Shown: positions 2,573 to 48,106 of the stretch, in pieces
Position numbering within the stretch: position 1 is the first letter of the stretch
How the letters are laid out: each line of letters begins with the position of its first letter
Origin: a bacterium
GTDB lineage: Bacteria; Ratteibacteria; UBA8468
Length of the DNA: 48,119 bases
NCBI GenBank assembly: GCA_030672255.1
Contig: DAOVGU010000137.1
Coordinates: 1-48,119 of the forward strand
Direction: 5' to 3'
The notes under the pieces: model-generated
Told to the model about the DNA's origin: nothing
Database searches by the model: none
What the model saw: only the letters and a program-made list of their open reading frames with translations
Made by a program: the position numbers and the translations under genes

Positions 2573-2619
2573 ACCGAAACCACAGATTACACTGATTGAC
2601 ACAAGATGACAGCATGGCT

Positions 2620-2710
2620 GTCATTGCGACCACGAGCGAAGCGTGGTGGGTGGCAATCCCTTACTTCTTTGAGATTGCTTCCCCTTCGTTTCACTCAGGG
2701 TCGCAATGAC
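2620..2710. repeat. GTCATTGCGA...TCGCAATGAC composite hairpin element (family R1)
   Basis: Bounded by GTCATTGCGAC and TCGCAATGAC, with GGCAATCCC / GAGATTGC modules shared with nine other loci. Confidence 0.8.
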
Positions 2711-2753
2711 ATTTCTGTGGGAATCTGGGAAATCTTGTGGTTAGAAAATTTAA

Positions 2754-3608
2754 ATGGGAAATTTGGTCAGAGAACCGGTGGTGGCGGGGCAGTTTTATCC
2801 CGCAGAGCCCGAGCAGCTGAGAAAAGCTCTTTCCTCCTATCTGGAGAGGAACTTACACCCCCACCTACCTCCTCCCCCCTTGAGGGGGAGGATAAAGGAG
2901 GGGGGAGGGGCAAAAGGAATTATTGTTCCCCATGCCGGTTATATTTACTCCGGACCGGTTGCCGGAGCAGTTTACTCCAGAATCATTCTGCCGGAGACAA
3001 TCATTCTTCTCGGGCCAAACCATACCGGGGTGGGCAAACCATTTTCTCTAATGAGGGAAGGAATCTGGAATACACCCCTCGGTAAGGTAGAGATATAAAC
3101 CTCAGTGGCTGAGGAAATTTTGAAGGATTCCCATTATCTTGAAGAGGATTTTCTGGCACATCAAGATGAGCATTCCTTAGAGGTGCAAATCCCTTTCCTC
3201 CAGGTTCTCTCTTCAGAATTTAAGATTATTCCCATTATCATCTCAGGAGGAGATGGCAAAACTCTGATGGCAATCGGAGAGGAGATTGCCGGGACATTGT
3301 TGAGATTAAAGAAAAACGTTCTTCTCATTGCCAGTTCAGATATGACCCATTATGAATCAGAAAAATCAGCCCGGGAAAAGGACGATTATGCTCTGGAGGC
3401 AATCCTGAAGTTAGATGAGGAGGAGTTACTAAAAAGGGTGGCAGAAAAAAATATCTCTATCTGCGGAGTAACTCCGGTAGTGGTGATGATTACCGCAGTC
3501 AAGAGGTTAGGAGCAAAAAAGGCAGAGTTAGTAAAATATCAGACAAGTGGGGCGGTAACCGGTGATTTAACCCAGGTAGTAGGGTATGCGGGCGTGATTG
3601 TAAGATAG
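2754..3608 (+). pseudogene. MEMO1-family / AmmeMemoRadiSam system protein B, interrupted by one in-frame TAA at 3096-3098
   Basis: ORFs 2754-3098 and 3105-3608 are in the same frame. Joined, they read VAGQFYP..IVPHAGYIYSG..LGPNH..WNTPLGKVEI*TSVAEEIL..EHSLEVQIPFLQ..SSDMTHY, a full-length Memo fold. Confidence 0.75.
2856..2910. repeat. C-rich/G-rich nested palindrome (family R3), in frame in the Memo gene
   Basis: CACCCCCACCTACCTCCTCCCCCCTTGAGGGGGAGGATAAAGGAGGGGGGAGGGG is translated as HPHLPPPPLRGRIKEGGG. A near-identical non-coding copy lies at 24361-24406. Confidence 0.85.
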
Positions 3609-4745: not shown

Positions 4746-4899
4746 GTCATTGCGAGCGTGAGCGAAGCAATCCGACGGAGTCGTTGCGAGGAGTGAAACG
4801 ACGAAGCAATCTCAAAGAAGCGAGGGATTGCCACACTCACTTTGTTCGCTCGCAATGACAAGATGAGATTGCCACGTCGCTAATGCTCCTCGCAATGAC
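4746..4899. repeat. family R1 composite element (empty-site version)
   Basis: Almost identical to 5643-5814, but carries ACT where the other copy carries the 19-nt palindrome. Confidence 0.85.
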
Positions 4900-5642: not shown

Positions 5643-5814
5643 GTCATTGCGAGCCTGAAGGCGAAGCAATCCGACGGAGTCGTTGCGAGGAGTGAAACGA
5701 CGAAGCAATCTCAAAGAAGCGAGGGATTGCCACACTCCCCCGTATTTAATACGGGGTTGTTCGCTCGCAATGACAAGATGAGATTGCCACGTCGCTAACG
5801 CTCCTCGCAATGAC
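5643..5814. repeat. family R1 composite element with nested R2 palindrome at 5737-5756
   Basis: GTCATTGCGAG...CCACACTC-CCCCGTATTTAATACGGGG-TTGTTCGCTCGCAATGAC...CTCGCAATGAC. Confidence 0.85.
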
Positions 5815-7305: not shown

Positions 7306-7520
7306 AATTGTAGAAAGCGGTGTAGATAAAATATCTGAAGACCAACTTGCTAACATTGTAGGCAGCAACTTCCGCCACTATCCTATACGCTACCTTTAGT
7401 AGTAATATGCGTAATTAGCCCCTGATTAAATCAGGGGTCAAATTAATCTTGTAGCAAATATGCGGAGAGAGTTATCTTCTCTGAAATTACTGGCAGCAAC
7501 TATCAGTGTAGTTGGTGTGG
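7306..7520. repeat. mosaic of REP-like GTAG hairpins plus the CCCCTGATTAAATCAGGGG palindrome (7419-7437)
   Basis: ATTGTAG / GTGTAG / CTTGTAGCAAAT motifs are shared with 322-592. The palindrome variant is shared with nadC (10311-10329). Confidence 0.65.
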
Positions 7521-7788: not shown

Positions 7789-9795
7789 ATGAGTAGTAAT
7801 TTTAAACTTGTCTCTGATTATCAGCCTAAAGGGGACCAGCCAAAGGCAATCAATTCTCTTCTTGAAGGTCTAAAGAGAGATGAGAAGTTCCAGACCCTAT
7901 TGGGGGTTACCGGTAGCGGCAAAACCCTTACGATGGCTAATGTTATTGCCAAAGTTAACCGCCCCACCCTTGTTATCTCTCATAACAAGACGTTAGCCGC
8001 ACAACTCTATTCGGAATTCAAGGAATTCTTTCCGAATAACCGGGTGAGATACTTTGTCTCCTACTACGACTACTATCAACCGGAGGCCTATATACCTTCC
8101 ACCGATACCTATATTGAAAAGGATGCCTCAATCAATGATGATATTGACCGATTGAGACTGTCTGCCACCAGCGCCCTTCTCTCCTCTCGGGATGTCATCA
8201 TTGTTGCTTCGGTCTCCTGTATCTATCCTTTAGGCAGTCCTGAGGACCATCTTGCTTTGATGCTCAGATTGAAAAAAGGCCGGGAGGTTGGCAGAAGGGA
8301 GATTCTAAAGAGGTTGGTAGAGATTCAGTATGAAAGAAATGATTTAGATCTAACGCGAGGTAAATTTCGCGTAAGGGGAAATAACATTGAACTTATCCCG
8401 GCCTATGAAGAGGAAGGTATAAGGATTGAGCTCTCGGACACGCAGGTGGAAGAGTTAGATACCATTGATCCCTTAACCGGAAGAAGAAAAAGGAGGCTCG
8501 AGGAGATTGCCATTTATCCCGCCAAGCATTTTGTTACCACTAAAAGCAAATTAGAAAGAGCAATTTCCTCGATCAGAGAGGAATTAGCCGAGCAGTTAAA
8601 AAATTTAAAGAAGGAGAAGAAATTATTAGAGGCAGAAAGGTTAGAATCCCGCACAAAGTATGACTTAGAGATGCTCAAGGAGATCGGTTACTGCCATGGG
8701 ATGGAAAACTACTCCAGGCACTTCTCAGGAAGACTTCCCGGAGAAAGGCCCCAGGTACTCCTGGACTACTTTCCGGAAGATCTTCTACTTTTTATTGATG
8801 AATCACATGTCACCATTCCCCAACTTCGGGGAATGCATTTAGGGGACCGGTCCCGCAAGGAGACCTTGATTGAATATGGTTTCCGGCTTCCTTCTGCTTT
8901 AGACAATCGACCTTTAACCTATCAGGAGTTTGAGAGTTTAATCAAAAATGTTATCTTTGCCTCGGCTACCCCAAGTAGATTTGAAATAGGACTCTGTGGA
9001 GCCAAAAGATTAGGGGAGAAATCAAAAAAGATTGCCGAACAGATCATCCGGCCTACCGGACTTCTGGAGCCTCCGATTTTGCTGAGGTCAACCAAGGGGC
9101 AGATCGATGACCTCATAAAAGAGATCAAAGAGAGAGCGAAAAAGGGAGAGAGGGTACTGGTTATTACCCTTACCCGGCATATGGCCGAAGATTTAGCCGA
9201 CTATCTAAAGGAACTTGGCATAAAGGTTGAATATATTCATTATGAGGTAGATACAATCAAGAGGGTAGAGCTATTACGGAATTTAAGGGAGGCAAAGTTT
9301 GATGTTTTAGTTGGCATCAATCTTTTGCGGGAAGGATTGGATTTACCTGAGGTCAGTCTGGTGGCAATCCTTGATGCCGATAAGGAAGGTTTTCTTCGCT
9401 CGGAGACCTCTCTGATCCAGGTGGCAGGAAGAGCCGCCAGAAGTCTTAACGGGAAGGTCATTATGTATGCCGATAAAGTTACAAAATCGATGAGATTGGC
9501 GATCAATGAAACTAACCGCAGACGCAAAATCCAAGAGGATTATAATCAAAAGCACCATATTACTCCGGTTTCAATTAAGAAACCAATCTATAAAGGAATT
9601 GAAGAGATCATCAGAAGCAAAAAAACAACTGAGCGTCCTTTTCTCAGTGAAAAGGAAGAGAGGTATTTGGGCAAGGATCTCTCGGCGATCATCAAGAGAC
9701 TCCAGCGGCAGATGTTTACCGCCGCCAAAAACCTGGATTACGAGAAGGCCGCCGCCCTTCGCGACAGAATAAAGGAATTAAGGAATGAAAAATAG
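7789..9795 (+). CDS. uvrB: excinuclease ABC subunit B
   Basis: 668 aa. It has GVTGSGKT, helicase motifs, and the C-terminal UVR domain ([11 protein letters not shown]). Confidence 0.97.
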
Positions 9796-10660
9796 GAAGG
9801 AAATAGAGGATTTAATCAAGAGAGCTCTTGCTGAGGATATTGGAGAAGGGGATACTACAACAAAAATCCTATTTCCTAAACCGAAAAGGGCAAAGGCAAT
9901 AATTTTAGCTAAAGAAAAGGGGATTATTGCCGGGCTTCCCATAGCGAAATTGGTTTTTAAGCTAATCGATAAAAAGATTAGATTTATTCCTCAGGTAAAG
10001 GAGGGAGAAAAGATTAAAGCTAATCAGATTATTGCTAAGGTAATCGGGAATTGCGCCGGCCTCCTCTCCGGAGAAAGAACAGCATTAAATTTCCTGTCCC
10101 ATCTTTCCGGAATTGCCACCTTAACCAATCTCTTTGTTAAAAAAGTAAAAAATAGAGTAAAGATTATGGATACCAGAAAGACAACTCCCAATTTAAGGCT
10201 ATTGGAGAAGTATGCGGTAAGAATTGGCGGAGGAAAGAATCATCGCTTTGGCCTTTTCGATGATATTTTAATCAAGGATAACCACATTAAAATCAAATAT
10301 CAAAAATCAACCCCTGATTTAATCAGGGGCAAAAATCAAGTGATTAAGGATTTAGTTATTAAGGCAAAAAAGAAAGCAAAAAAAATGAAGGTGGAGATTG
10401 AGGTCAGTAATTATCAAGAGGCAAAAGCGGCAATAACAGCAGGAGCGGATATCATTATGCTGGATAATATGAAACCGGAGAAAATTAGAAAAGTCGTGAA
10501 ACTTGCCAATAATTTACCAGAAAAACCAATTTTTGAGGTCTCCGGAGGAATAACTCTTAAGAGTATCAATCAATTTGCCTCTCTTGGAATTGACCGCATC
10601 TCCATCGGCTCTCTCACTCACTCCGCCCCCGCCCTGGATTTAGGGATGGAGATAATATGA
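9785..10660 (+). CDS. nadC: nicotinate-nucleotide pyrophosphorylase (carboxylating)
   Basis: 291 aa. Motifs are [33 protein letters not shown]. Confidence 0.93.
10311..10329. repeat. palindrome CCCCTGATTTAATCAGGGG (R2 variant), in frame in nadC
   Basis: Translated as (T)PDLIRG, within an extra segment between KDNHI and the KVEIEV strand. Confidence 0.8.
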
Positions 10661-13045: not shown

Positions 13046-13117
13046 CTTTGATACTCTTGTTTAATTACTCGCCATTGTGTCGCAAGCGAAGGAAAGCAAT
13101 GCTGGATATCATATCAA

Positions 13118-13137
13118 CCCCGTATTTAATACGGGGG
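13118..13137. repeat. R2 palindrome, intergenic
   Basis: CCCCGTATTTAATACGGGGG lies between ispD and argJ, nested between the ATTGTGTCG / CGACACAAT inverted repeats. Confidence 0.85.
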
Positions 13138-13153
13138 AGTAGGCCGACACAAT

Positions 13154-13861
13154 TCATGGTTGCCTCATCTTCAGGATTGCTCTAGCCAGGAGGAGGTCAT
13201 TTTTTGTAGTAATCTTAATATTACAAGGGTCCCCTTTAATGATCTTTGCTGAAATACCAATCCTCTCCACCAAAGAGGCCGAATCCGTTCCCAAAAAATG
13301 ATCCTTCTTTGCCCGGAAATAGGCCTTTTGAATAATTGAGGCTCTGAACCCCTGGGGCGTCTGAACCCTCCAGAAGGATCCTCTATTCTTTATTGTAGAT
13401 TTAATAAAAAAAGAACCTCTCACTTCCTTAATTGTATCGGAAATGGGAAGTCCAACAACAGCCGCTTTATACCTTTTTGCGGCTAAAGTTATCCTTCTAA
13501 TTAACCCTTTAGTAAGGAAGGGTCTGGCTCCATCATGAATAAGGATGAGATCGCAAAGAGAATTTATTCTCTTTAACCCTAAAGCAACGGAATCCTGCCG
13601 GCTCTTTCCTCCTGCAACTATCTCCTTAACCTTGGAGATGCGGTATTTTCTTACCAATCTCCTTGCCTCTGAAATCCTGCTCTCCTCCACTACCAAGATG
13701 ATATCATCAATAAAAGAGGAGGCTTCTAATGTAAGGAGGCTATAGGTAAGGAGAGGCTTTCCTTCGAGGAGGAAAAAGGGTTTATTAAGTTGATAATCAA
13801 GTCTTTTACCCTTTCCGGCTGCCGGCACAACCACTGTTACATAGGGGTCAGGTCTCAACAT
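13154..13861 (-). CDS. ispD: 2-C-methyl-D-erythritol 4-phosphate cytidylyltransferase
   Basis: 235 aa with VVPAAGKGKRL. The ATG and first six codons (MLRPDP) lie inside the R5 terminal repeat. Confidence 0.9.
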   Translation of the reverse strand: MLRPDPYVTVVVPAAGKGKRLDYQLNKPFFLLEGKPLLTYSLLTLEASSFIDDIILVVEESRISEARRLVRKYRISKVKEIVAGGKSRQDSVALGLKRINSLCDLILIHDGARPFLTKGLIRRITLAAKRYKAAVVGLPISDTIKEVRGSFFIKSTIKNRGSFWRVQTPQGFRASIIQKAYFRAKKDHFLGTDSASLVERIGISAKIIKGDPCNIKITTKNDLLLARAILKMRQP

Positions 13862-18262: not shown

Positions 18263-19648
18263 TCACTCCTGCCTGGGGGACCAGGGTTCAAACCTTGTAT
18301 ATTCCTTAATGAAGGTAAAGTTAATTGTGCCCGTAGGGCCATTACGTTGCTTGGCAATAATCAATTCAGTGGGCTCTTGCTTCTTTCCTTCCTCAGCAAT
18401 TCCCTCCCCCGTATTAAATACGGGGTCAGTAATTTCTTCCTCCTCGCGATAGAGAAGCAAAACCAAATCGGCATCCTGTTCCATGGCTCCACTTTCTCGT
18501 AAATCGGAGAGTCGTGGCCGTCGATGTTCCTCTGCCGCCCGTCTTAACTGAGAAAGGGCGATAATAGGAATCCCCAACTCTTTAGCCAGGGCTTTAAGGG
18601 AGGCAGAAATTTCGGTAATCTCCTGTTGTCGGTTCTCAATCCTCGTTCTTGTTTGCATCAACTGCAGATAGTCAACAATTACCAATTTAATTCCCTCCTT
18701 TGCCACCAGTCGCCTGGCCTTTGCCCTAATTTCCAAAATAGAAAGAGCCGGAGAGTCGTCAATAAAGATTGGCGCCTCCTGCAACCTGCCTGCGGCCATT
18801 GTTAGATTGGGCCAATCGGAATCTTTGGAAAAGCCGGTTCTTAACTTTAGGAGGTTTACCTTCGCCTCGGTGCAGAGCATCCTCTGAACTAACTGCTCCT
18901 TAGACATCTCTAAACTGAAAAAGGCTAAAGGTACTTTCTTCTTGGCGCCAAGATAAGAGGCGATGTTAGCCGCAAGGGAGGTTTTGCCAACCGAGGGGCG
19001 GGAGGCGACAATAATGAACTCCGAAGGTTGAAATCCTGAGGTTCGCATGTCCAGATCATAGAATCCGCTGGGCAGTCCCGTGATATAGCCTTTTTGGTCG
19101 GCTGCCTCCTCAATCGTCTCAATTGTCTGATGAACCAGCTCCCGAAAGGGGATAACCTCTCCTTTCCTCTTGCGATATCCTCCCACATCAAAAATAAGTT
19201 TTTCTGCTTCATCCAGAGTTTTATCAACATCATCGCTTTCCCAAACTTCATTAACAATTTTATTGCTATTCTCAATGAGACGCCGCAGGATAAACTTATC
19301 CCTCACAATCTTAATATATTGCTCGATATTTGCTGCCGAAGGAACGGCATCAATAAGCTTTGTGAGGTAGCTGGAACCACCAACCACTTCTAAATTGTGC
19401 TCACTTTTCAGTCTGTTCGTCAGGGTAACAAGATCGCAGGACTCATTCTTCTCAAAGAGATTCACAATTGCCTTAAAGATTTCACGATGGGCTTCCTTAT
19501 AAAAATTTTCTGGAGCAATCTCCTCAATCGCCTTATTTCTGGCCTTTTCCTCTAAAAGCATGGAGCCAAGAAGTGCTTGCTCAGCCTCGATATTGGCCGG
19601 TGGACTCTTCCCTATTTCCTCAACAGGAGAACTCTTTCTTCTCGCCAT
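18263..19648 (-). CDS. dnaB: replicative DNA helicase
   Basis: 461 aa. Motifs are NIEAEQALLGSML, Walker A SRPSVGKTS, and C-terminal AKQRNGPTG. Confidence 0.95.
   Translation of the reverse strand: MARRKSSPVEEIGKSPPANIEAEQALLGSMLLEEKARNKAIEEIAPENFYKEAHREIFKAIVNLFEKNESCDLVTLTNRLKSEHNLEVVGGSSYLTKLIDAVPSAANIEQYIKIVRDKFILRRLIENSNKIVNEVWESDDVDKTLDEAEKLIFDVGGYRKRKGEVIPFRELVHQTIETIEEAADQKGYITGLPSGFYDLDMRTSGFQPSEFIIVASRPSVGKTSLAANIASYLGAKKKVPLAFFSLEMSKEQLVQRMLCTEAKVNLLKLRTGFSKDSDWPNLTMAAGRLQEAPIFIDDSPALSILEIRAKARRLVAKEGIKLVIVDYLQLMQTRTRIENRQQEITEISASLKALAKELGIPIIALSQLRRAAEEHRRPRLSDLRESGAMEQDADLVLLLYREEEEITDPVFNTGEGIAEEGKKQEPTELIIAKQRNGPTGTINFTFIKEYTRFEPWSPRQE
18406..18425. repeat. R2 palindrome in frame in dnaB
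   Basis: CCCCCGTATTAAATACGGGG is read on the minus strand as (D)PVFNTG(E). Confidence 0.9.
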
Positions 19649-19659
19649 TTGAGATTCTT

Positions 19660-19678
19660 CCCCCGTATTAAATACGGA
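19660..19678. repeat. R2 palindrome (one arm degenerate), rplI-dnaB intergenic
   Basis: CCCCCGTATTAAATACGGA. Confidence 0.8.
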
Positions 19679-19693
19679 GTCAGAATGACTTCG

Positions 19694-27520: not shown

Positions 27521-28642
27521 CTAAATTAAATTTTTATCTTTCAATTTTTTCGCTGCCTTCTCAAAAAAATCCTCTGCCTCCACGCTCTTTGACCAGTCAA
27601 CCAATTCTTCTATTCCTTCTTCCAGATTTATTCTCGGTTGAAAGCCCAAGAGCCTTTTTATCTTGCCAATATCGGCAAAGCAATGCCGGATATCACCCTT
27701 ACGGAATTTATTGGTAATTTCGGGTTTTATTGATTTTCCGGTTGCTTTGGTTAATCTTTCTGCTATTTTCAGAATGGTCGTTGCTTTTCCTGAACCCAGA
27801 TTAAAAATCTGATAATCTGCCTTTTCCTTCTCCATCGCTAAAATATTTGCTCTTACCACATCATAGACCGAAATGAAATCCCGGGATTGGCTACCATCCT
27901 CATAGATAATCGGGGCTTTACTATTCTTGATTCTTGATAAGAAAATGGCCATTACCCCGGTATAGGGATTGGAGAGGGACTGTCTTGGACCATAGACATT
28001 AAAGAAGCGAAGAACAACTACCGGGAGAAAATAGGTTTTGCCGATATTTAAGACGAGCTCCTCCTGGGTTTTCTTAGTGATGGCATAGATGGAGTTTACA
28101 TTTAATCTTGCTGATTCTCTGGTAGCGACTGGCTTTAAAATTCTCTGGCAGGCAGGGCAATAAGGTTCCCAGTCCTTCCTTTTTAATTGGCGAAGAACCC
28201 GTAACTCTGGCTGAACAATCCCACAGGAGGAACATCTATACTCCCCTTCACCGTACTCACTCATCGAAGCGGCCAAAATCAGCTTTTTTATTTTATTTTT
28301 GTTATTTACTATAAGGTCGAGGAGATTGGCTGTCCCGCCAATATTGGTCTCCACATATCTTTTTACTTCGTACTGGCTCTGGCCAATGCCAACGGCTGCG
28401 GCAAAATGAAAGATAATTTCTATATTTTTTATTGCTTTCTTTAAATCATTTAGTTTCCTGATATCTCCTTTAATAAATTTCGCCCTTCCCGTATTAAATA
28501 CGGGATAGGCCGGTAATCTTTTTTCGGGATGAACCTGGGCCTCTAAGTTATCGAAAGCGGTTACCTGATGGCCTTTTTTAACCAATTCATCAACAAGGAA
28601 ACTGCCAATAAACCCTGCCCCTCCCGTCACTAATATTTTCAT
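27521..28642 (-). CDS. NAD-dependent sugar epimerase/dehydratase (extended SDR) with Cys4 insert
   Basis: 373 aa. It has TGGAGFIGS and YAITK (YxxxK). An extra CSSC...CPAC segment lies at 28148-28234. Confidence 0.85.
   Translation of the reverse strand: MKILVTGGAGFIGSFLVDELVKKGHQVTAFDNLEAQVHPEKRLPAYPVFNTGRAKFIKGDIRKLNDLKKAIKNIEIIFHFAAAVGIGQSQYEVKRYVETNIGGTANLLDLIVNNKNKIKKLILAASMSEYGEGEYRCSSCGIVQPELRVLRQLKRKDWEPYCPACQRILKPVATRESARLNVNSIYAITKKTQEELVLNIGKTYFLPVVVLRFFNVYGPRQSLSNPYTGVMAIFLSRIKNSKAPIIYEDGSQSRDFISVYDVVRANILAMEKEKADYQIFNLGSGKATTILKIAERLTKATGKSIKPEITNKFRKGDIRHCFADIGKIKRLLGFQPRINLEEGIEELVDWSKSVEAEDFFEKAAKKLKDKNLI
28488..28504. repeat. R2 palindrome in frame in the SDR gene
   Basis: CCCGTATTAAATACGGG is read on the minus strand as PVFNTG (residues 47-52). 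Confidence 0.9.
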
Positions 28643-28645
28643 TAA

Positions 28646-29968
28646 TTATCCCCTTCCCACTCCCTCATAAACAAATCCCAATTTTTTCATTCTTTCCGGC
28701 TCATAGATATTGCGACCATCAATGAGATAAGGCTTTTGCAGCAACCTTTTTACCTTGATTAAGTTGAGATTCTTAAATTCCTCCCATTCGGTAAGAATAA
28801 GCAGGAGCTCAGCATCTTTGCAGACTTCATAAGGGTTTCTGCAATAGGTAATCCGCCAATGTTTAGTGGCGGAGGGAAAAATTTTCTTTGTCTCCCTCAT
28901 CGCCTCAGGGTCATATACCCGAAGAACCGCCCCCTCGGAAAGAAGCTCTTTTATAATCTTAATGGAAGGAGCTTCCCGAATATCATCGGTATTCGGTTTA
29001 AAGGAAAGGCCCAGGATGCCAATTCTCCTATTTTTCAGGGTCGGCAGGAGTCTTTTTACCTTCTTGAAAAGAAGGTTTAATTGTTCTTGATTAATCCTTT
29101 GCACCGCTTTAAGCAGACTAAAGTCGTAGCCTTCCTCCTTCGCCAGATGGATAAAGGCGGCTACATCCTTAGCAAAGCAGCTGCCTCCATAGCCAATTCC
29201 TGCAGAGAGAAATTTTTTACCAATGCGGGAATCATAGCCCATCCCCTTTGCTACCTGGCTAACATCCGCTCCTACCTTCTCACAGATACGAGAGATCGCA
29301 TTGATGTAGGAAATTTTTGTGGCTAAAAAGGAGTTAGAGGCATGCTTAATCAGTTCAGCGCTCCTTACATCGGTGAAGATAATCGGTGCTTTTATTGGTC
29401 GATAAAGCTCGGCTAATGTTCTTCTTGCTCTTTGCGATTCGGCGCCGATGATAATACGTTCGGGTTGCAAAAAATCCAATATTGCCGAGCCTTCCCTTAA
29501 AAATTCCGGATTAGCGGCCAGATCAAAATCAACCTCTTTCCTTTTAATCAAATTAATTGTTCTCTTTACCCATTCCCCGGTCATTACCGGAACGGTGCTC
29601 TTCTCCACCAGTAATTTATAACCCTTCATTGCCTTTGCTATCTCTGAGGTAACCGCCTCAACAGCCGAAAGGTCTGCCCCTCCATCTTTTTTAGAAGGGG
29701 TTCCTACAGCGATAAAGATAATCTCAGAAACACTGATAGCCTCTTTAATACTCCCACTAAAGGAAAGTTTTTCTCTTTTCACCGCTTTTTTCACTATCTC
29801 TTCCAAACCAGGCTCAAAGAAGGGCATTATCCCTTTTTTAAGACCACCTATCTTTCTCTGATCATTATCTACACAGATGACCTTTCCCGTATTAAATACG
29901 GGATTAGCAAAACAGGCCGCGGTTACCAATCCGACGTGGCCGGCTCCAATTACCGTGATTCCTTTCAT
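28646..29968 (-). CDS. ugd: UDP-glucose 6-dehydrogenase
   Basis: It has GAGHVGLV and catalytic GGSCFAKD. The start at 29968 gives an ATGA overlap with the upstream stop. Confidence 0.92.
   Translation of the reverse strand: MKGITVIGAGHVGLVTAACFANPVFNTGKVICVDNDQRKIGGLKKGIMPFFEPGLEEIVKKAVKREKLSFSGSIKEAISVSEIIFIAVGTPSKKDGGADLSAVEAVTSEIAKAMKGYKLLVEKSTVPVMTGEWVKRTINLIKRKEVDFDLAANPEFLREGSAILDFLQPERIIIGAESQRARRTLAELYRPIKAPIIFTDVRSAELIKHASNSFLATKISYINAISRICEKVGADVSQVAKGMGYDSRIGKKFLSAGIGYGGSCFAKDVAAFIHLAKEEGYDFSLLKAVQRINQEQLNLLFKKVKRLLPTLKNRRIGILGLSFKPNTDDIREAPSIKIIKELLSEGAVLRVYDPEAMRETKKIFPSATKHWRITYCRNPYEVCKDAELLLILTEWEEFKNLNLIKVKRLLQKPYLIDGRNIYEPERMKKLGFVYEGVGRG
29886..29902. repeat. R2 palindrome in frame in ugd
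   Basis: CCCGTATTAAATACGGG is read as (FAN)PVFNTG(KVICVD). Confidence 0.9.
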
Positions 29969-41964: not shown

Positions 41965-42102
41965 GTCATTGCGAGCCCAAAGGGCGTGGCAATCCTTCCT
42001 GCTGTCATTCCCGTGTAAACGGGAACCTATTATTAGATTCCTGCTTCCGCAGGAATGACAAACTCCAACGGAGTTGACTGAAGTATTTACCCTCGCAATG
42101 AC
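41965..42102. repeat. R1 element with a nested GTCATTCC...GGAATGAC unit (42004-42059)
   Basis: GTCATTGCGAGCCC...GGCAATCC / GTCATTCCCGTGTAAACGGGAAC...ATTCCTGCTTCCGCAGGAATGAC / ...CTCGCAATGAC. Confidence 0.8.
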
Positions 42103-42116
42103 ATCTTTAATGAGTT

Positions 42117-43325
42117 TTACCTAATCAGGTCCGCGTATTTTTCTCTTTCCCGGATGACTCTATCCTTAGCTTGGGAAACAAGAATCTCCGGGAGTCTCAG
42201 GCGACTATTGTAGTTTGAGGACATAGAAAAGCCATAGGCGCCGGTATCCTTAATGGCTAAAAAATCCCCTTCCTTTAAGGAAAGGGGTAGCCTCCTATTT
42301 TTCCCCAAGAAATCACCGGATTCGCAAATCGGACCGACAATGTTTCCGATAAAACTCTTCCCCGAGGGTTTTTTCAGGGGAACAATTTCGTGATAGGCTC
42401 CATAAAGGGATGGCCGGAGGAGGTCATTGAGTCCGGCATCAACCACAACAAACTTTCCTTTCAGATAAAGTACGCGAGTAACCAAAATGCCAGAGCCTCC
42501 CACAATGTATCTTCCCGGTTCAAAAATGATTTTTGCTCTCAGCTCCTTCAGGAGGGAAATGATGCTTATAGCAAAATCTTTGATGGAAGGGACCTTTTTC
42601 TCATATTGGATGGGGAAACCACCACCAATATCAAGGACGTCTACCTTAATTCTTTCCTTTCTGATAAAATTTATTAACTTCTTGATTGCTATTTGGTAGA
42701 CTTCGGGGAAGGTGATTTGAGAGCCAAGATGGATGTGAAGCCCCAAAATATTGATTTTGGGAAAAGAAGCTTTGTCCTTAAAGATTTTTGCCACCTCTTT
42801 CCAGCCAATTCCGAACTTAGATTCCTTCCTGCCCGTGGCAACATACCGATGCGTCTTAGGCTCAACATCAGGGTTGACCCTGAGGTTGCAGTTTACTCTT
42901 CTATTAAGCTTGGATGCGATTTTATTGATTAATTTTAATTCCGAAGCCGATTCAACGTTGAATAAATAAATATTCTTTTTTATTGCCTCCTTAATTTCCT
43001 CTTCCCTTTTGCCGACCCCGGCAAAGACAATTTTTTCCGGCGGGATCCCGGCCTTTAAGGCCAAAAATAGTTCTCCCAGGGAAACGATGTCCGCCCCAGC
43101 CCCAAGATTTTTTAAAATTTTTAAAAGGGAAAGATTGGAGTTTGCCTTCAGGCTATAGCAGATGAGAGGAAAAAGCGTAGAAAACGCTTTTTCAAATTTT
43201 CTGTACTGACTGCAAATAGAATTTTTGCCATAAAGATAACAAGGGGTGCCGATCTTTTCCGCAATCTCGCCTACCTTTACCCCTTCGCAATAAAGACTAT
43301 TTTTATAATAAAAAAAAAGTTCCAT
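42117..43325 (-). CDS. lysA: diaminopimelate decarboxylase
   Basis: 402 aa. It has the PLP-Lys context CYSLKANS, GGGF, and CESGD. Confidence 0.92.
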   Translation of the reverse strand: MELFFYYKNSLYCEGVKVGEIAEKIGTPCYLYGKNSICSQYRKFEKAFSTLFPLICYSLKANSNLSLLKILKNLGAGADIVSLGELFLALKAGIPPEKIVFAGVGKREEEIKEAIKKNIYLFNVESASELKLINKIASKLNRRVNCNLRVNPDVEPKTHRYVATGRKESKFGIGWKEVAKIFKDKASFPKINILGLHIHLGSQITFPEVYQIAIKKLINFIRKERIKVDVLDIGGGFPIQYEKKVPSIKDFAISIISLLKELRAKIIFEPGRYIVGGSGILVTRVLYLKGKFVVVDAGLNDLLRPSLYGAYHEIVPLKKPSGKSFIGNIVGPICESGDFLGKNRRLPLSLKEGDFLAIKDTGAYGFSMSSNYNSRLRLPEILVSQAKDRVIREREKYADLIR

Positions 43326-43957
43326 TACTTATACCGGGAAAGGTCAACCTCAAACCTCAGTTCCCTCTCCTCCTCCCATCTACCTCTGATAAGGATGACG
43401 ATAATCTTTTCCTTGGGTTTTATTTTCTCATAAGGAAAAAAACCTTTGACAACCGCTTCGTAGCCTGGACTGTTTGGCCAGGTTTCTCTTGGTTTACCAA
43501 GTGAGTCGCTCTCTGTCTTTGTGGGAGCAACAACCCCCAATTCTCTCCTTCCTCTTATTGAACGGGAGGTGATAATTACTAAGGAATACTCCCGGGCAAA
43601 ATCAATTCTATCCCCTACGGTATGGATTTCAATGAGAAAATCCTTTTTTGCTAAGATTGCTTTTTGCTCCCCTTCGGAAAGTTTCCCTCCCTTTTCCTTC
43701 GCTTCGCCAGCTGCCAAAGCCAGATCAACATATTTGGTGACAAGGTAGCCATACTCATTGATGCTGGTGCTACAGCGAAACTTATATTTTCTTAAGATGC
43801 GAGATCCCTCCTCCCGCTCTCCCCAACCGATTGCCTGCCCTACCTCAGATTTACTCAAATTTACCTCAATCGCATGAACCTGAGGAATGAGGAAGAAGAA
43901 AATAAGCATTAAATATATAAAATTTCTCTTTTGAACGCAGATAAACGCAGATAACAT
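43325..43957 (-). CDS. secreted hypothetical protein
   Basis: Start chosen at MLSAFICVQKRNFIYLMLIFFFLIPQVHA (signal-peptide-like). Its stop overlaps the lysA ATG (TAATG). No family was recognised. The upstream ORF extension is repeat sequence. Confidence 0.55.
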   Translation of the reverse strand: MLSAFICVQKRNFIYLMLIFFFLIPQVHAIEVNLSKSEVGQAIGWGEREEGSRILRKYKFRCSTSINEYGYLVTKYVDLALAAGEAKEKGGKLSEGEQKAILAKKDFLIEIHTVGDRIDFAREYSLVIITSRSIRGRRELGVVAPTKTESDSLGKPRETWPNSPGYEAVVKGFFPYEKIKPKEKIIVILIRGRWEEERELRFEVDLSRYK

Positions 43958-43988
43958 CAGGATTAAGTTAAAAATCAAAGACGACGTA

Positions 43989-44185
43989 GTCATTGCGAGT
44001 GAACAACCCCGTATTAAATACGGGGGAGCGTGGCAATCCCATCTTGTCATTGCGAGTGAACAAAGTGAGCGTGGCAATCCCTCGCTTCTTTGAGATTGCG
44101 GAGCCTGTTCCGAGCCTGTCAATGAGATTGCTTCGGGATTTTATCCCTCGCAATGACAGGCGAAGAATCCCATGCCTCGCAATGA
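43989..44185. repeat. array of R1 units, the first carrying the R2 palindrome (44007-44026)
   Basis: GTCATTGCGAGTGAACAA[CCCCGTATTAAATACGGGG]GAGCGTGGCAATCCC is followed 20 nt later by the same unit with AGT at that point. Confidence 0.85.
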
Positions 44186-44194
44186 CACTTCGTG

Positions 44195-45562
44195 TCATTT
44201 TAATCTCTTCTCCCAGTCCTTTATTCTTTTGGCAACCTGCTTTGGGGAGGTTCCGCCAAAGGAGGTCTTGTCCTTCACTGAAGCCTCAACCTTTATTCTT
44301 TTCAGGGCATCCTTTTCAAATTTATCCGAGAACCTTCTTAACTCAGGTAAAGTTAGCTCCTTCAATCCTCTTCCTGAATCTCTGAGATGCTTAAGGATTT
44401 TACCCACAATCCGATGCGCTTTCCGAAAAGGAATCCCCTTTATCACCAAGTATTCTACCAAATCGGTTGCGGTTGTCTCCCCCCTTTCTGCCATTTTCTT
44501 CATCCTTTCCTTATCGAGTCTGATTTTTGGCAGAAATTTTGTAGAGATACTTAGGCAGGAACTCACAATCTCCATAATCTCAAAGAATCCTTCTTTATCC
44601 TCCTGCATATCCCGATTATAGGACAAAGGGAGGTTTTTCATCAAAGAAAAGAGTCCAAGAAGTTCACCATAGACCCTGGCTGTCTTTCCCCGGATTAGTT
44701 CCGGAATATCCGGGTTTTTCTTGTTTGGCATTAAAGAGGAGCCGGTAGCAAAAGACTCATCGATCTCTAAAAACCCAAATTCGGTACTATTCCAAAGGAT
44801 AATTTCCTCACTTAGGCGGGAAAGGTGCATCATAAGAATAGCGCTTGCGGAACCTACCTCAAGTAAGAAGTCTCTGTCACTGACCGCATCGATAGAGTTT
44901 TCTGCCACCTTGGTAAATCCCAGGACTTTTGCCGTAAATTTTCTATCGATGGGCAGGGAAGTACCAGCACCGCTTGCCGCTCCTAAAGGAGAAACATCAA
45001 CCCTGAGATAACCATCATTAAAGCGCTGCTTATCTCTCTCCAACATTTCCAGGTAAGCTAATAGCCAGTGGCTAAAAAGGATGGGCTGGGAGTGTTGGAG
45101 ATGGGTATAACCGGGCATGACGACATTCTGATACCTTCTTGCCACCCGCAAAATTGTTGTTTGAAATTCGGTGATTTGAGAGCTAATCTTTTTGATTTTC
45201 TCCTTCAGATAAAGCCTTTCATCCAGGGCAATCTGGTCATTGCGGGAACGAGCGGTATGAAGTTTCTCTCCTAAAACCCCAATTTTTTCTGTTAAGCAGC
45301 GTTCGATTGCCGTATGAATGTCTTCATCATTTTTAAAAATAAATTTTTCTTCTTCTATCTCCTTTTTAATTTCCTTTAAGTTTTTAATAATTTTTCTCGC
45401 CTCTTTCTCTTTAATAATCTTGCATTTAGCCAGCATTTTTATATGAGCAACACTGCCTAAGATATCATAATCTGCCAATTTCTTATCCACAGATAAAGAA
45501 GAGGTAAATTCCTCCACCTCCTTGTTCAGTTTCTTTTTAAATCTTGAATCCCAGAGTTTCAT
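44195..45562 (-). CDS. argH: argininosuccinate lyase
   Basis: Start at MKLWDSRF (ATG at 45560-45562). The signature is GSSLMPNKKNPD. Confidence 0.93.
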   Translation of the reverse strand: MKLWDSRFKKKLNKEVEEFTSSLSVDKKLADYDILGSVAHIKMLAKCKIIKEKEARKIIKNLKEIKKEIEEEKFIFKNDEDIHTAIERCLTEKIGVLGEKLHTARSRNDQIALDERLYLKEKIKKISSQITEFQTTILRVARRYQNVVMPGYTHLQHSQPILFSHWLLAYLEMLERDKQRFNDGYLRVDVSPLGAASGAGTSLPIDRKFTAKVLGFTKVAENSIDAVSDRDFLLEVGSASAILMMHLSRLSEEIILWNSTEFGFLEIDESFATGSSLMPNKKNPDIPELIRGKTARVYGELLGLFSLMKNLPLSYNRDMQEDKEGFFEIMEIVSSCLSISTKFLPKIRLDKERMKKMAERGETTATDLVEYLVIKGIPFRKAHRIVGKILKHLRDSGRGLKELTLPELRRFSDKFEKDALKRIKVEASVKDKTSFGGTSPKQVAKRIKDWEKRLK

Positions 45563-47976: not shown

Positions 47977-48106
47977 GTCATTGCGAGCGAACAACCCCGT
48001 ATTAAATACGGGGGAGTGGGGCAATCCCTCGCTTCTTTGAGATTGCTTCGTCGTTAATACTCCTCGCAACGACTGCGTCGGATTGCTTCACTTCGTTCGC
48101 AATGAC
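47977..48106. repeat. R1 composite element with nested R2 palindrome (47995-48015)
   Basis: GTCATTGCGAGCGAACAA-CCCCGTATTAAATACGGGGG-AGTGGGGCAATCCCTCGC...TTCGCAATGAC. Confidence 0.85.

Follow-up and report, generated by a model that had tools for sequence, protein, structure and literature searches.

What does it mean when two neighbouring copies of a repeat are alike except at one point, where one has a trinucleotide and the other a perfect 19-nt palindrome? Such a pair is found in contig DAOVGU010000137.1 of assembly GCA_030672255.1 (Ratteibacteria, UBA8468), of which positions 1 to 48,119 were analysed; this whole 48-kb stretch is referred to as the window. The two copies belong to a family of host units, GTCATTGCGAG...GGCAATCCC. 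The unit at 43989-44040 (+ strand) reads GTCATTGCGAGTGAACAA-CCCCGTATTAAATACGGGG-GAGCGTGGCAATCCC, and the unit at 44046-44081 (+) reads the same with AGT instead of the 19-mer. An earlier note on this DNA had pointed to this single difference and to a third unit, from 47977, filled at the same point; it proposed that the palindrome is a discrete unit which enters a defined site of a different repeat family. On re-reading, the pair is exactly as described and the third unit is filled at 47977-48028. The palindrome, here called PAL, is a discrete, recently gained module. It arrives by replacement of a few target bases, without target duplication, and not by insertion.

The swap at this site (AGT against CCCCGTATTAAATACGGGG) has two clean states. 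The check which the earlier note suggested, alignment of many units and scoring of their state, was made on metagenome contigs with the pattern GTCATTGCGAGYGAACAA-N(0-30)-GAGYGKGGCAATC, which gave 71 units from 70 loci. The site is 3-4 nt long in 65 units and 19 nt long in six, and there are no intermediates; the continuum that the earlier note had named as a refutation is not seen. AGT is the most frequent state (35/71 units); the other short states are AAGT (7), AGC (5), CGT (5), AGA (5), AAGC (3) and five singletons. All six filled units represent one locus recurring in six samples, in which PAL has one mismatch; several of these samples are of the Crystal Geyser series (Ga02100xx), which also supplied the Ca. 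Ratteibacteria contigs L003-L005. Another Ratteibacteria metagenome-assembled genome (MAG; locus L047) has a diverged empty form, GAATGA-AAT-GAGCGCG, and the short state is thus old and PAL derived.

Beyond the noted pair, the window contains a second empty/filled pair on the minus strand (4824-4859 and 5723-5774), the members of which sit in two composites of ~170 nt that are otherwise nearly identical. Two flank haplotypes, C..T and T..C, are seen among these window units. Filled and empty states are found in each haplotype; the filled state is therefore scattered and not clade-like, which answers the question of clade or scatter raised in the earlier note. Such scatter points to recurrent gain or loss, or to short-patch conversion, rather than to one inherited clade. 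For the adjacent pair, short-patch conversion between units would be the simplest account; a local duplication, with later gain or loss, is likewise compatible.

PAL has the sequence CCCCGTATTWAATACGGGG, 19 nt in length, with covarying variants. The window contains ten copies, two covarying subfamilies included: three in filled GTCATTGCGAG units, five at other PAL sites, and two of the covarying subfamily PAL2 (CCCCTGATTWAATCAGGGG). Ten perfect-armed palindromes around ATTWAAT are seen in the window where 0.02 are expected, and a search which allows up to three mismatches gives eight sites against none expected. Like variants are neighbours: the PAL2 copy at 7419 is paired with that at 10311, and the copy at 28487 with that at 29885. 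The latter two have a T...A outer pair, lie 1.4 kb apart and are flanked by CTA...AGG. The flanks of the dnaB copy (CTGA-PAL-GAG) likewise resemble those of a unit 1.25 kb upstream (CTGA-PAL-GAAG).

Variation within PAL preserves its symmetry. Perfect symmetry is kept in the variants TCCCGT..ACGGGA, CCCCTG..CAGGGG, CCCCCG..CGGGGG and CCCTGG..CCAGGG, and there are eight non-canonical perfect copies, whereas 0.08 perfect-armed palindromes of any sequence are expected. Among 13 distinct sequences, a list partly chosen for symmetry, both sides have changed in five of nine pairs, and none of 500 shuffles reaches the observed covariation score. PAL is constrained to remain a hairpin. That it is a discrete unit, as the earlier note held, is borne out by the presence of the same 19-mer in unrelated contexts: coding sequences, other repeats, a 23S ribosomal RNA (rRNA) helix and a tRNA-derived hairpin.

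The units which hold PAL have a plan of their own. With at most one mismatch, GTCATTGCGAG is matched 30 times in the window against 0.39 expected. Its copies share GTC(A/G)TTGCGAG, a variable insert, and G(T/A)(G/A)GCAATC(C/T)C, of which the ATTGC and GCAAT arms pair. In nearly every copy the insert is a small hairpin whose loop is of the GAAG, GAAA or CAAAG type; examples are GCGAAGC, GCCGAAGGC and GGGACAAGTCCC. Material for comparison came from the window and from 8-kb loci of other genomes (L-numbered); 70 units from these sources have 59 different inserts. The units are arranged head to head in composites of 70-170 nt, which fold as long hairpins (energy z-scores -5.6 to -6.9). In the DNA fold of the filled unit at 43989-44040, ATTGC/GCAAT forms the outer stem and PAL an 8-bp apical hairpin. 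There is also a sister unit type, GTCATTCTGA...GAAGAATC. The GTCATTGCGAG...GCAATCC sequences look like a separate, older hairpin family resembling MITEs (miniature transposable elements with inverted repeats) or repetitive extragenic palindromes (REPs), with conserved arms and a cassette-like variable apex. The repeat families are nested hierarchically and are not one degenerate repeat, as had been proposed, with PAL inside a defined site of a separate family. The idea that PAL enters such a site is right as to the site, which is the variable apex, but not as to insertion; furthermore, PAL is one of many apex modules and is shared with other host repeats and other organisms.

The units match no curated RNA family in an Rfam scan of the window, which finds only a tRNA-Leu. 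Full-text literature searches for the PAL and GTCATTGCGAG sequences returned nothing relevant. A hammerhead-like ribozyme core (CUGA...GAA) was considered for the units and rejected; on inspection by eye the core does not fit.

Table 1. PAL copies and host units in the window, with the same site in relatives where it was compared.
Feature	Position	Strand	Detail	Site in relative	Site in window	Change
Filled host unit, flank haplotype T..C	43989..44040	+	GTCATTGCGAGTGAACAA-PAL-GAGCGTGGCAATCCC			
PAL, perfect 19-nt palindrome	44007..44025	.	CCCCGTATTAAATACGGGG			
Empty host unit, haplotype T..C	44046..44081	+	AGT at 44064-44066 where PAL would be			
Filled host unit, haplotype C..T with G variant	47977..48028	+	PAL at 47995-48013			
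Filled host unit, haplotype C..T	5723..5774	-	PAL at 5738-5756			
Empty host unit, haplotype C..T	4824..4859	-	AGT; composite nearly identical to that at 5643-5814			
Second host-unit type, between rplI and dnaB	19651..19689	-	GTCATTCTGA-PAL-GAAGAATCTC; PAL (CTCCG..., 1 mismatch) at 19661-19679	L002: GTCATTCTGA-ACGAAGG-GAAGAATCTC	PAL in place of 7 nt	
PAL between ispD and argJ, in ~100-nt insert	13118..13136	.	terminal inverted repeats ATTGTGTCG...CGACACAAT	L002: genes overlap, no insert	~100-nt insert with PAL	
PAL in dnaB coding sequence	18407..18425	-	read D-PVFNTG-E	L002: ATTATCGA-AGCAGTTACT-GAGGGA	ATTACTGA-PAL-GAGGGA	10 nt to 19
PAL (T...A outer pair) in NAD-dependent epimerase coding sequence	28487..28505	-	read Y-PVFNTG-R	L091: CTTA-TTTCAATAAA-AAAGC	CCTA-TCCCG...CGGGA-AGGGC	10 nt to 19
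PAL (T...A outer pair) in UDP-glucose dehydrogenase coding sequence	29885..29903	-	read N-PVFNTG-K	L091: GCTAA-ATTAGGAAAT; L090: GTTAGGAAAT	GCTAA-TCCCGTATTTAATACGGGA-AAGG	10 nt to 19
PAL2, intergenic, between PIN-domain gene and uvrB	7419..7437	.	CCCCTGATTAAATCAGGGG			
PAL2 in nadC (nadC 9785-10660)	10301..10339	+	PAL2 at 10311-10329, read TPDLIRG; flanked by perfect 10-bp direct repeat CAAAAATCAA			

Relatives which lack PAL define what is replaced. Six window copies can be compared with syntenic relatives, and all six are absent there (Table 1). Locus L002 (GCA_030637775.1) is syntenic with the window over ~10 kb (11.8-22.3 kb), with aligned blocks 86-91% identical; it contains no PAL and no GTCATTGCGAG unit in this stretch, where the window has three PAL copies. 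Loci L090 and L091 are without the two sugar-gene copies, and the UDP-glucose dehydrogenase (UGDH) of L090 is 81% identical at the protein level. Four window copies are in frame within genes: dnaB, UGDH, epimerase and nadC. The first three share one frame and all read PVFNTG. In each of these three a 10-nt stretch has become 19 nt, a net gain of 9 nt and three residues; in DnaB, IEAVT of the relative is TDPVFNTG in the window. The gain of three residues is also seen against solved structures and against 24 homologues. The replaced 10-mers are mini inverted repeats, ATT-AGGA-AAT, TTT-CAAT-AAA and CAG-TTA-CTG (the last overlaps the dnaB stretch); the chance of a terminal 3-bp stem is estimated at ~1/64 per site.

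The same holds outside genes. At every comparable site the replaced stretch is 3-10 nt, and it is usually a mini inverted repeat or a hairpin loop. Six sites have an ancestral or sister sequence for direct comparison; each lacks 3-10 nt of target, and none is a simple insertion. Direct repeats at the junctions show no excess and there is no regular target-site duplication, the exception being 10301-10339 in nadC, where the 10-bp repeat is the sole duplication-like junction among ~100 sites. Classical transposition was rejected, as no target duplication was found. A fixed 10-bp stagger, which would link the 10-nt genic swaps to the 10-bp repeat, was also rejected; non-coding sites give 3, 5, 7 and 8 nt. 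Assembly artefact is no explanation either. The genic copies keep the frame, point and compensatory variants are present, and copies recur across the assemblies and assemblers of many laboratories; one dnaB copy is reproduced in the independent Logan assembly of SRR26080961.

Two of these sites have further features. The nadC site is hypervariable in relatives, several of which carry an insert encoding '...LAMT...', as does the host-unit arm CTCGCAATGAC when translated; units of this kind apparently enter nadC in frame too. The ispD/argJ insert (13060-13175) also holds a degenerate unit arm, GCATTGCTTTCCTTCGCTTGCGAC.

A hairpin context is seen in other genomes too. At 26% of sites, against 2% of controls, flanking sequence forms a stem of 5 bp or more no further than 3 nt from PAL; at 10% of sites and 0% of controls a stem of 8 bp or more directly abuts it. 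In a Syntrophales 23S rRNA gene (L069), the Rfam alignment places PAL where the apical GNRA hairpin gc-gcaA-gc would be (~model position 1890); this hairpin, 8 nt long in the family consensus, is absent. In a genome of the candidate phyla radiation (CPR) type, represented by L019 (4292-4520) and L071 (225-436), an intact tRNA-Trp is followed by two tandem pseudo-3' halves. Each is ~75 nt long and consists of the tRNA 3' end and a second hairpin, and in each PAL replaces the T-loop GAATC. One L071 copy, CCCTGGATTTAATCCAGGG, is two compensatory pair changes away from PAL; the orthologous regions are 94% identical.

Host units of the same family elsewhere are joined to PAL at differing points, after GCGA, GCGAG or GAACAA, and whole mini-hairpins of the GCGAAAGC type are replaced. 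These entries are taken as independent because junctions in the same host family differ between genomes. In-frame genic copies occur elsewhere in murD, in genes for a TrpE/PabB-family chorismate-binding enzyme and a DUF2851 protein, in the signal-peptide region of an aldo-keto reductase gene, and in a phage portal gene. A single preferred reading frame, as PVFNTG in three window genes might indicate, was considered and rejected; all four stop-free frames are used across genomes. At two loci (L026 3743 and L059 4073) PAL is preceded by part of its own left arm (CCCCGTATT and CCCCGTATTA), which suggests either PAL nested in PAL or an aborted copy.

PAL is distributed far beyond the Ratteibacteria. 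The exact 19-mer is present in at least 81 stretches of a collection of species-representative genomes; our own estimate of the number expected by chance in these 596 Gb is ~4. Among the matches listed, over 15 phyla are represented by MAGs, and archaea and phage contigs are present as well. Fourteen of the listed stretches come from one Chloroflexi/Dehalococcoidia MAG. Besides the source genome of the window, PAL-rich MAGs are Chloroflexi JACQGQ01, Nitrospinota JACQEW01 and Ca. Subterrananammoxibius JAURAC01. Other listed hosts are Nitrospinota, Nitrospirota, anammox and other Planctomycetota, Deltaproteobacteria, Elusimicrobia, several CPR phyla, Ca. Ratteibacteria, Bacteroidota and archaea. 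One archaeal copy lies just upstream of an archaeal-type EF-1alpha gene, and three related phage contigs have PAL in an SPP1-type portal gene, at the 5' end, with the reading PVFNTG. PAL2 is also found in two further MAGs, one of Chloroflexi and another of Ratteibacteria. Cultured plasmids and phages, searched with the filled/empty pair, gave no match. About 45 of 93 copies among the matches listed have unique flanks; the remainder lie in host-repeat families.

Two Planctomycetota MAGs (L007 5071, labelled Pirellulales, and L050 418, labelled Phycisphaerae) share an aldo-keto reductase locus that is 95% identical. PAL is at the same spot in a Tat-like signal region in both, intact while the bases just upstream diverge; judged by this alignment, the copy is inherited. 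Taken with the centre base, PAL's right half (TAATACGGGG) presumably matches the 530-loop region of 16S rRNA (GGTAATACGGGGG) of some phyla. The single 16S gene compared differs from TAATACGGGG there, and coincidence, at ~0.3% per 16S gene, is possible.

We tentatively read PAL as a very small, nested, non-coding hairpin repeat which is copied in by template switching or short-patch conversion at stalled hairpins, and give this a probability of about 0.4. The copying would take place on DNA and be directed by structure, as a 'hairpin swap'. Replication would stall at a small hairpin, and the nascent strand would switch to a PAL copy, often within 1-3 kb, via 2-4 nt of flanking microhomology. 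It would copy the palindrome and then return; the target hairpin would be deleted and, rarely, adjacent bases would be duplicated. Between members of one host-repeat family, short-patch gene conversion would give the same outcome. In coding regions only stop-free, in-frame products would survive. Spread between lineages would follow transfer of any DNA that bears PAL, such as host units or phage. Template switching or conversion is favoured over a transposase with a fixed cut because the target deletion is variable, a duplication occurs once, the microhomologies are short, donors are nearby and the targets are hairpins.

Several points weigh against this reading. Template switching leaves unexplained why phyla and domains share one identical 19-mer (and PAL2); a factor acting in trans on a specific sequence would explain this more naturally. 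There is a weak, dyad-symmetric flank bias: of 76 sites, 61 have a pyrimidine at -3 and 52 a purine at +3, and T is nearly absent at -1 and A at +1. The bias looks like recognition by a symmetric protein, or like a longer element. Microhomologies of 2-4 nt are easily found after the fact. The ancestral state is known for seven sites only, and the relatives that supply it are 74-91% identical, so that boundaries are uncertain by 1-2 nt. Evidence on an associated enzyme covers the 48-kb window and the 8-kb loci, and no whole genome.

A serious rival, though we consider it unlikely, has PAL as a REP-like element that is moved in trans by an enzyme encoded elsewhere, itself horizontally mobile and specific to hairpins. 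Candidates are an HUH/Y1 transposase, of the REP-associated tyrosine transposase (RAYT) or IS200/IS605 type, or a different nuclease/ligase with structure specificity. In the folded hairpin such an enzyme would recognise two features, the CCCC/GGGG foot and the ATTWAAT centre, and it would set PAL into hairpin apices. Identity across phyla and domains would follow, as would the symmetric flank bias and the preservation of the stem by compensatory change with CCC/GGG and ATTWAAT fixed. Lack of target duplication is also a property of HUH 'peel and paste', and REPs nested in host palindromes and within genes are documented (PMC3733652). However, the REP tags are not found at PAL junctions (GTAG at 1/78 and CGTC at 0/78 unique sites). 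A target deletion which varies from 3 to 10 nt, together with a single 10-nt duplication, is a misfit with precise HUH insertion guided by a fixed tetranucleotide. A Pfam scan of 30 larger window open reading frames (ORFs), which passed over the genes at ~24.4-42 kb except epimerase and UGDH, gives no transposase-like gene and no RAYT. Across 80 loci, no gene family recurs among the ORFs up to 2.5 kb away from PAL, local synteny apart. The enzyme would, moreover, need to exist in CPR bacteria, archaea and many phyla.

Less probable again is that PAL has no mobility of its own and is an apex variant of the GTCATTGCGAG and GTCATTCTGA units, spread by amplification or conversion of units, with the genic copies as rare ectopic conversions. 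Both filled unit types do recur with identical junctions in other phyla (L036, L039, L063, L062, L018), and the adjacent filled/empty pair requires nothing but conversion from unit to unit. The dnaB flanks, ATTACTGA...GAGGGAAT, resemble the unit arms ATTCTGA...GAAGAAT, and GAAG is the most frequent outward flanking tetramer (11 of 152 flanks; as CTTC at 12 of 78 sites). Yet about half of the copies have unique flanks unrelated to the units, and the flanks in UGDH, epimerase, the TrpE/PabB-family gene, murD and the portal gene are unlike unit arms. PAL is also found in different host repeats, such as CCCCCTTC-PAL-GAAGGGGG in a Chloroflexi MAG and repeats of Nitrospinota, and in the tRNA T-arm; even within the host-unit family its junction differs between genomes.

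Spread through RNA is very improbable. A transcribed hairpin would be joined into RNA loops, or reverse-transcribed and recombined into the genome. This would suit targets in the loops of stable or abundant RNAs (23S helix apex, T-loop) and in transcribed coding regions, a hairpin backed by compensatory changes, and the occurrence of TTTAA on the sense strand in seven of the ten window copies. However, no reverse transcriptase is present among the scanned window ORFs or recurrently near PAL, and PAL is found in both orientations relative to host repeats and genes. The T-loop cases are non-functional tRNA fragments and not the tRNA itself, and DNA hairpins account for the same targets. Least probable of all, with a very slight chance, is a selected functional motif, such as a site bound by a conserved dimeric protein or a hairpin with a regulatory or stabilising role: high conservation, dyad symmetry and many copies at gene ends or intergenic hairpins are in its favour, but copies in conserved enzymes, the portal gene and rRNA add three or more arbitrary residues or a helix extension at no common position, close relatives are without them, PAL is no intrinsic terminator, since no T-run follows, and the compensatory changes favour base pairing over half-site recognition.

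In its boldest form the hairpin-swap reading would make PAL an enzyme-free, 19-nt selfish replicator, the smallest DNA element to spread horizontally, multiplying across bacteria, archaea and phages; this we regard as doubtful. If it were true, such an element would rewrite the tips of hairpins in repeats, place inserts of tripeptide scale in essential proteins and extend rRNA helices, and it would move between phyla, archaea and phages merely by being present in the cell. More cautiously, PAL may rank among the smallest known DNA elements that spread. The size floor of mobile DNA and the movement of repeats below 30 nt have been questions since REPs and small dispersed repeats (SDRs) were described. 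Clean empty/filled pairs in repeats, genes, rRNA and a tRNA-derived hairpin define a signature: a mini-hairpin is replaced and nothing is duplicated. A sequence family that crosses domains makes tests of co-occurrence with trans-acting factors feasible, and makes the horizontal spread of a 19-mer directly testable. PAL is also a natural source of three-residue insertions in essential proteins such as DnaB, and it could serve as a marker of recent DNA exchange in subsurface communities.

PAL modules also create spurious ORFs and odd indels in the annotation of MAGs, and some window annotations may be read in the light of the repeats. Two long ORFs, 43325-44122 (-) and 43993-44385 (+), run through the repeat cluster at 43325-44385. 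They are probably repeat-derived extensions or spurious ORFs; the minus-strand ORF, the one of the two that was scanned, has no Pfam match. ORFs of repeat clusters are the usual source of 'VIASE.../...LAMT' hypothetical peptides. At 41965-42102 there is a further unit family, GTCATTCC(C/T)G...GGGAA(C/T)C, interleaved with GTCATTGCGAG units and likewise with conserved arms and a variable apex (members GTCATTCCCGTGTAAACGGGAAC and GTCATTCCTGCGGAAGCAGGAATC). A Memo-family gene at 2606-3608 seems to be split. The ORF at 3105-3608 matches profile positions 101-268 only, and the upstream ORF (2606-3085) begins within repeat units (2620-2710) and is without a Pfam match; in the relative L090, Memo is one undivided gene of 270 aa. 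This could be a disruption, a frameshift or a repeat-derived 5' extension.

Among known systems, SDRs of cyanobacteria come close. As reportedly described by Elhai et al. in 2008, they are 21-27 nt long, form a hairpin with compensatory changes and belong to one cyanobacterial subgroup. They are said to be embedded in other repeats, including tandem heptamers and mini-transposons, and sometimes in copies of themselves, and to differ in presence or absence between relatives; an RNA intermediate was reportedly proposed. Compared with this description, and not with SDR sequences, PAL is similar in its length of 19 nt, its compensatory hairpin and its presence or absence between relatives. It too lies in host units and heptamer arrays (L038, L023, L053) and is partially nested in itself (L026, L059). 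In contrast to SDRs, PAL crosses phyla and domains, replaces mini-hairpins, and has in-frame genic copies, an rRNA copy and a copy in a tRNA-derived hairpin.

Insertion sequences of the IS1397 and ISKpn1 class are autonomous DDE elements of ~1.4 kb with target duplications of 3-4 bp. They are cited as targeting the loops of REPs or palindromic units (Tobes & Pareja 2006, cited in PMC3116915). PAL shares with them, and with nested MITEs, the position of a mobile sequence at the apex of an existing repeated hairpin and the hierarchical nesting. Unlike these insertion sequences it encodes nothing and leaves no duplication. It differs from MITEs in having no target duplication of fixed length; an empty site plus the element does not equal a filled site. 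Rickettsia palindromic elements (RPEs) are palindromic selfish repeats of 100-150 bp in Rickettsiales, present in frame in protein genes and between genes (PMC1779305). PAL resembles them in being in frame within protein genes; it differs in its 19 nt, its net contribution of ~3 residues, its wide distribution and its host, which is related to Ca. Ratteibacteria / Omnitrophota.

REPs associated with RAYTs are the remaining comparison. REP families nested in host palindromes are GTAG-15 of A. variabilis, GTAG-23 of T. roseum and CGTC-1 of H. neapolitanus (Di Nocera et al. 2013, PMC3733652), and REPs within ORFs, often those of DNA replication or repair genes, are described in the same paper. 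PAL is like a REP in being a small palindrome in high copy number, with ten copies in 48 kb. It differs in lacking a GTAG or CGTC tag, in replacing target bases, and in being a perfect 19-nt palindrome at the lower edge of REP size (20-40 bp). PAL is identical in many phyla and in archaea, whereas no REP family is reported across domains and some are reported in several species. No named family is assigned to PAL because it fails the tests of REP tag and MITE duplication, is much smaller than RPEs and has a wider distribution. It is of the 'very small nested palindromic repeat' type, outside any named family, with a distribution far wider than that of REPs, SDRs or RPEs.

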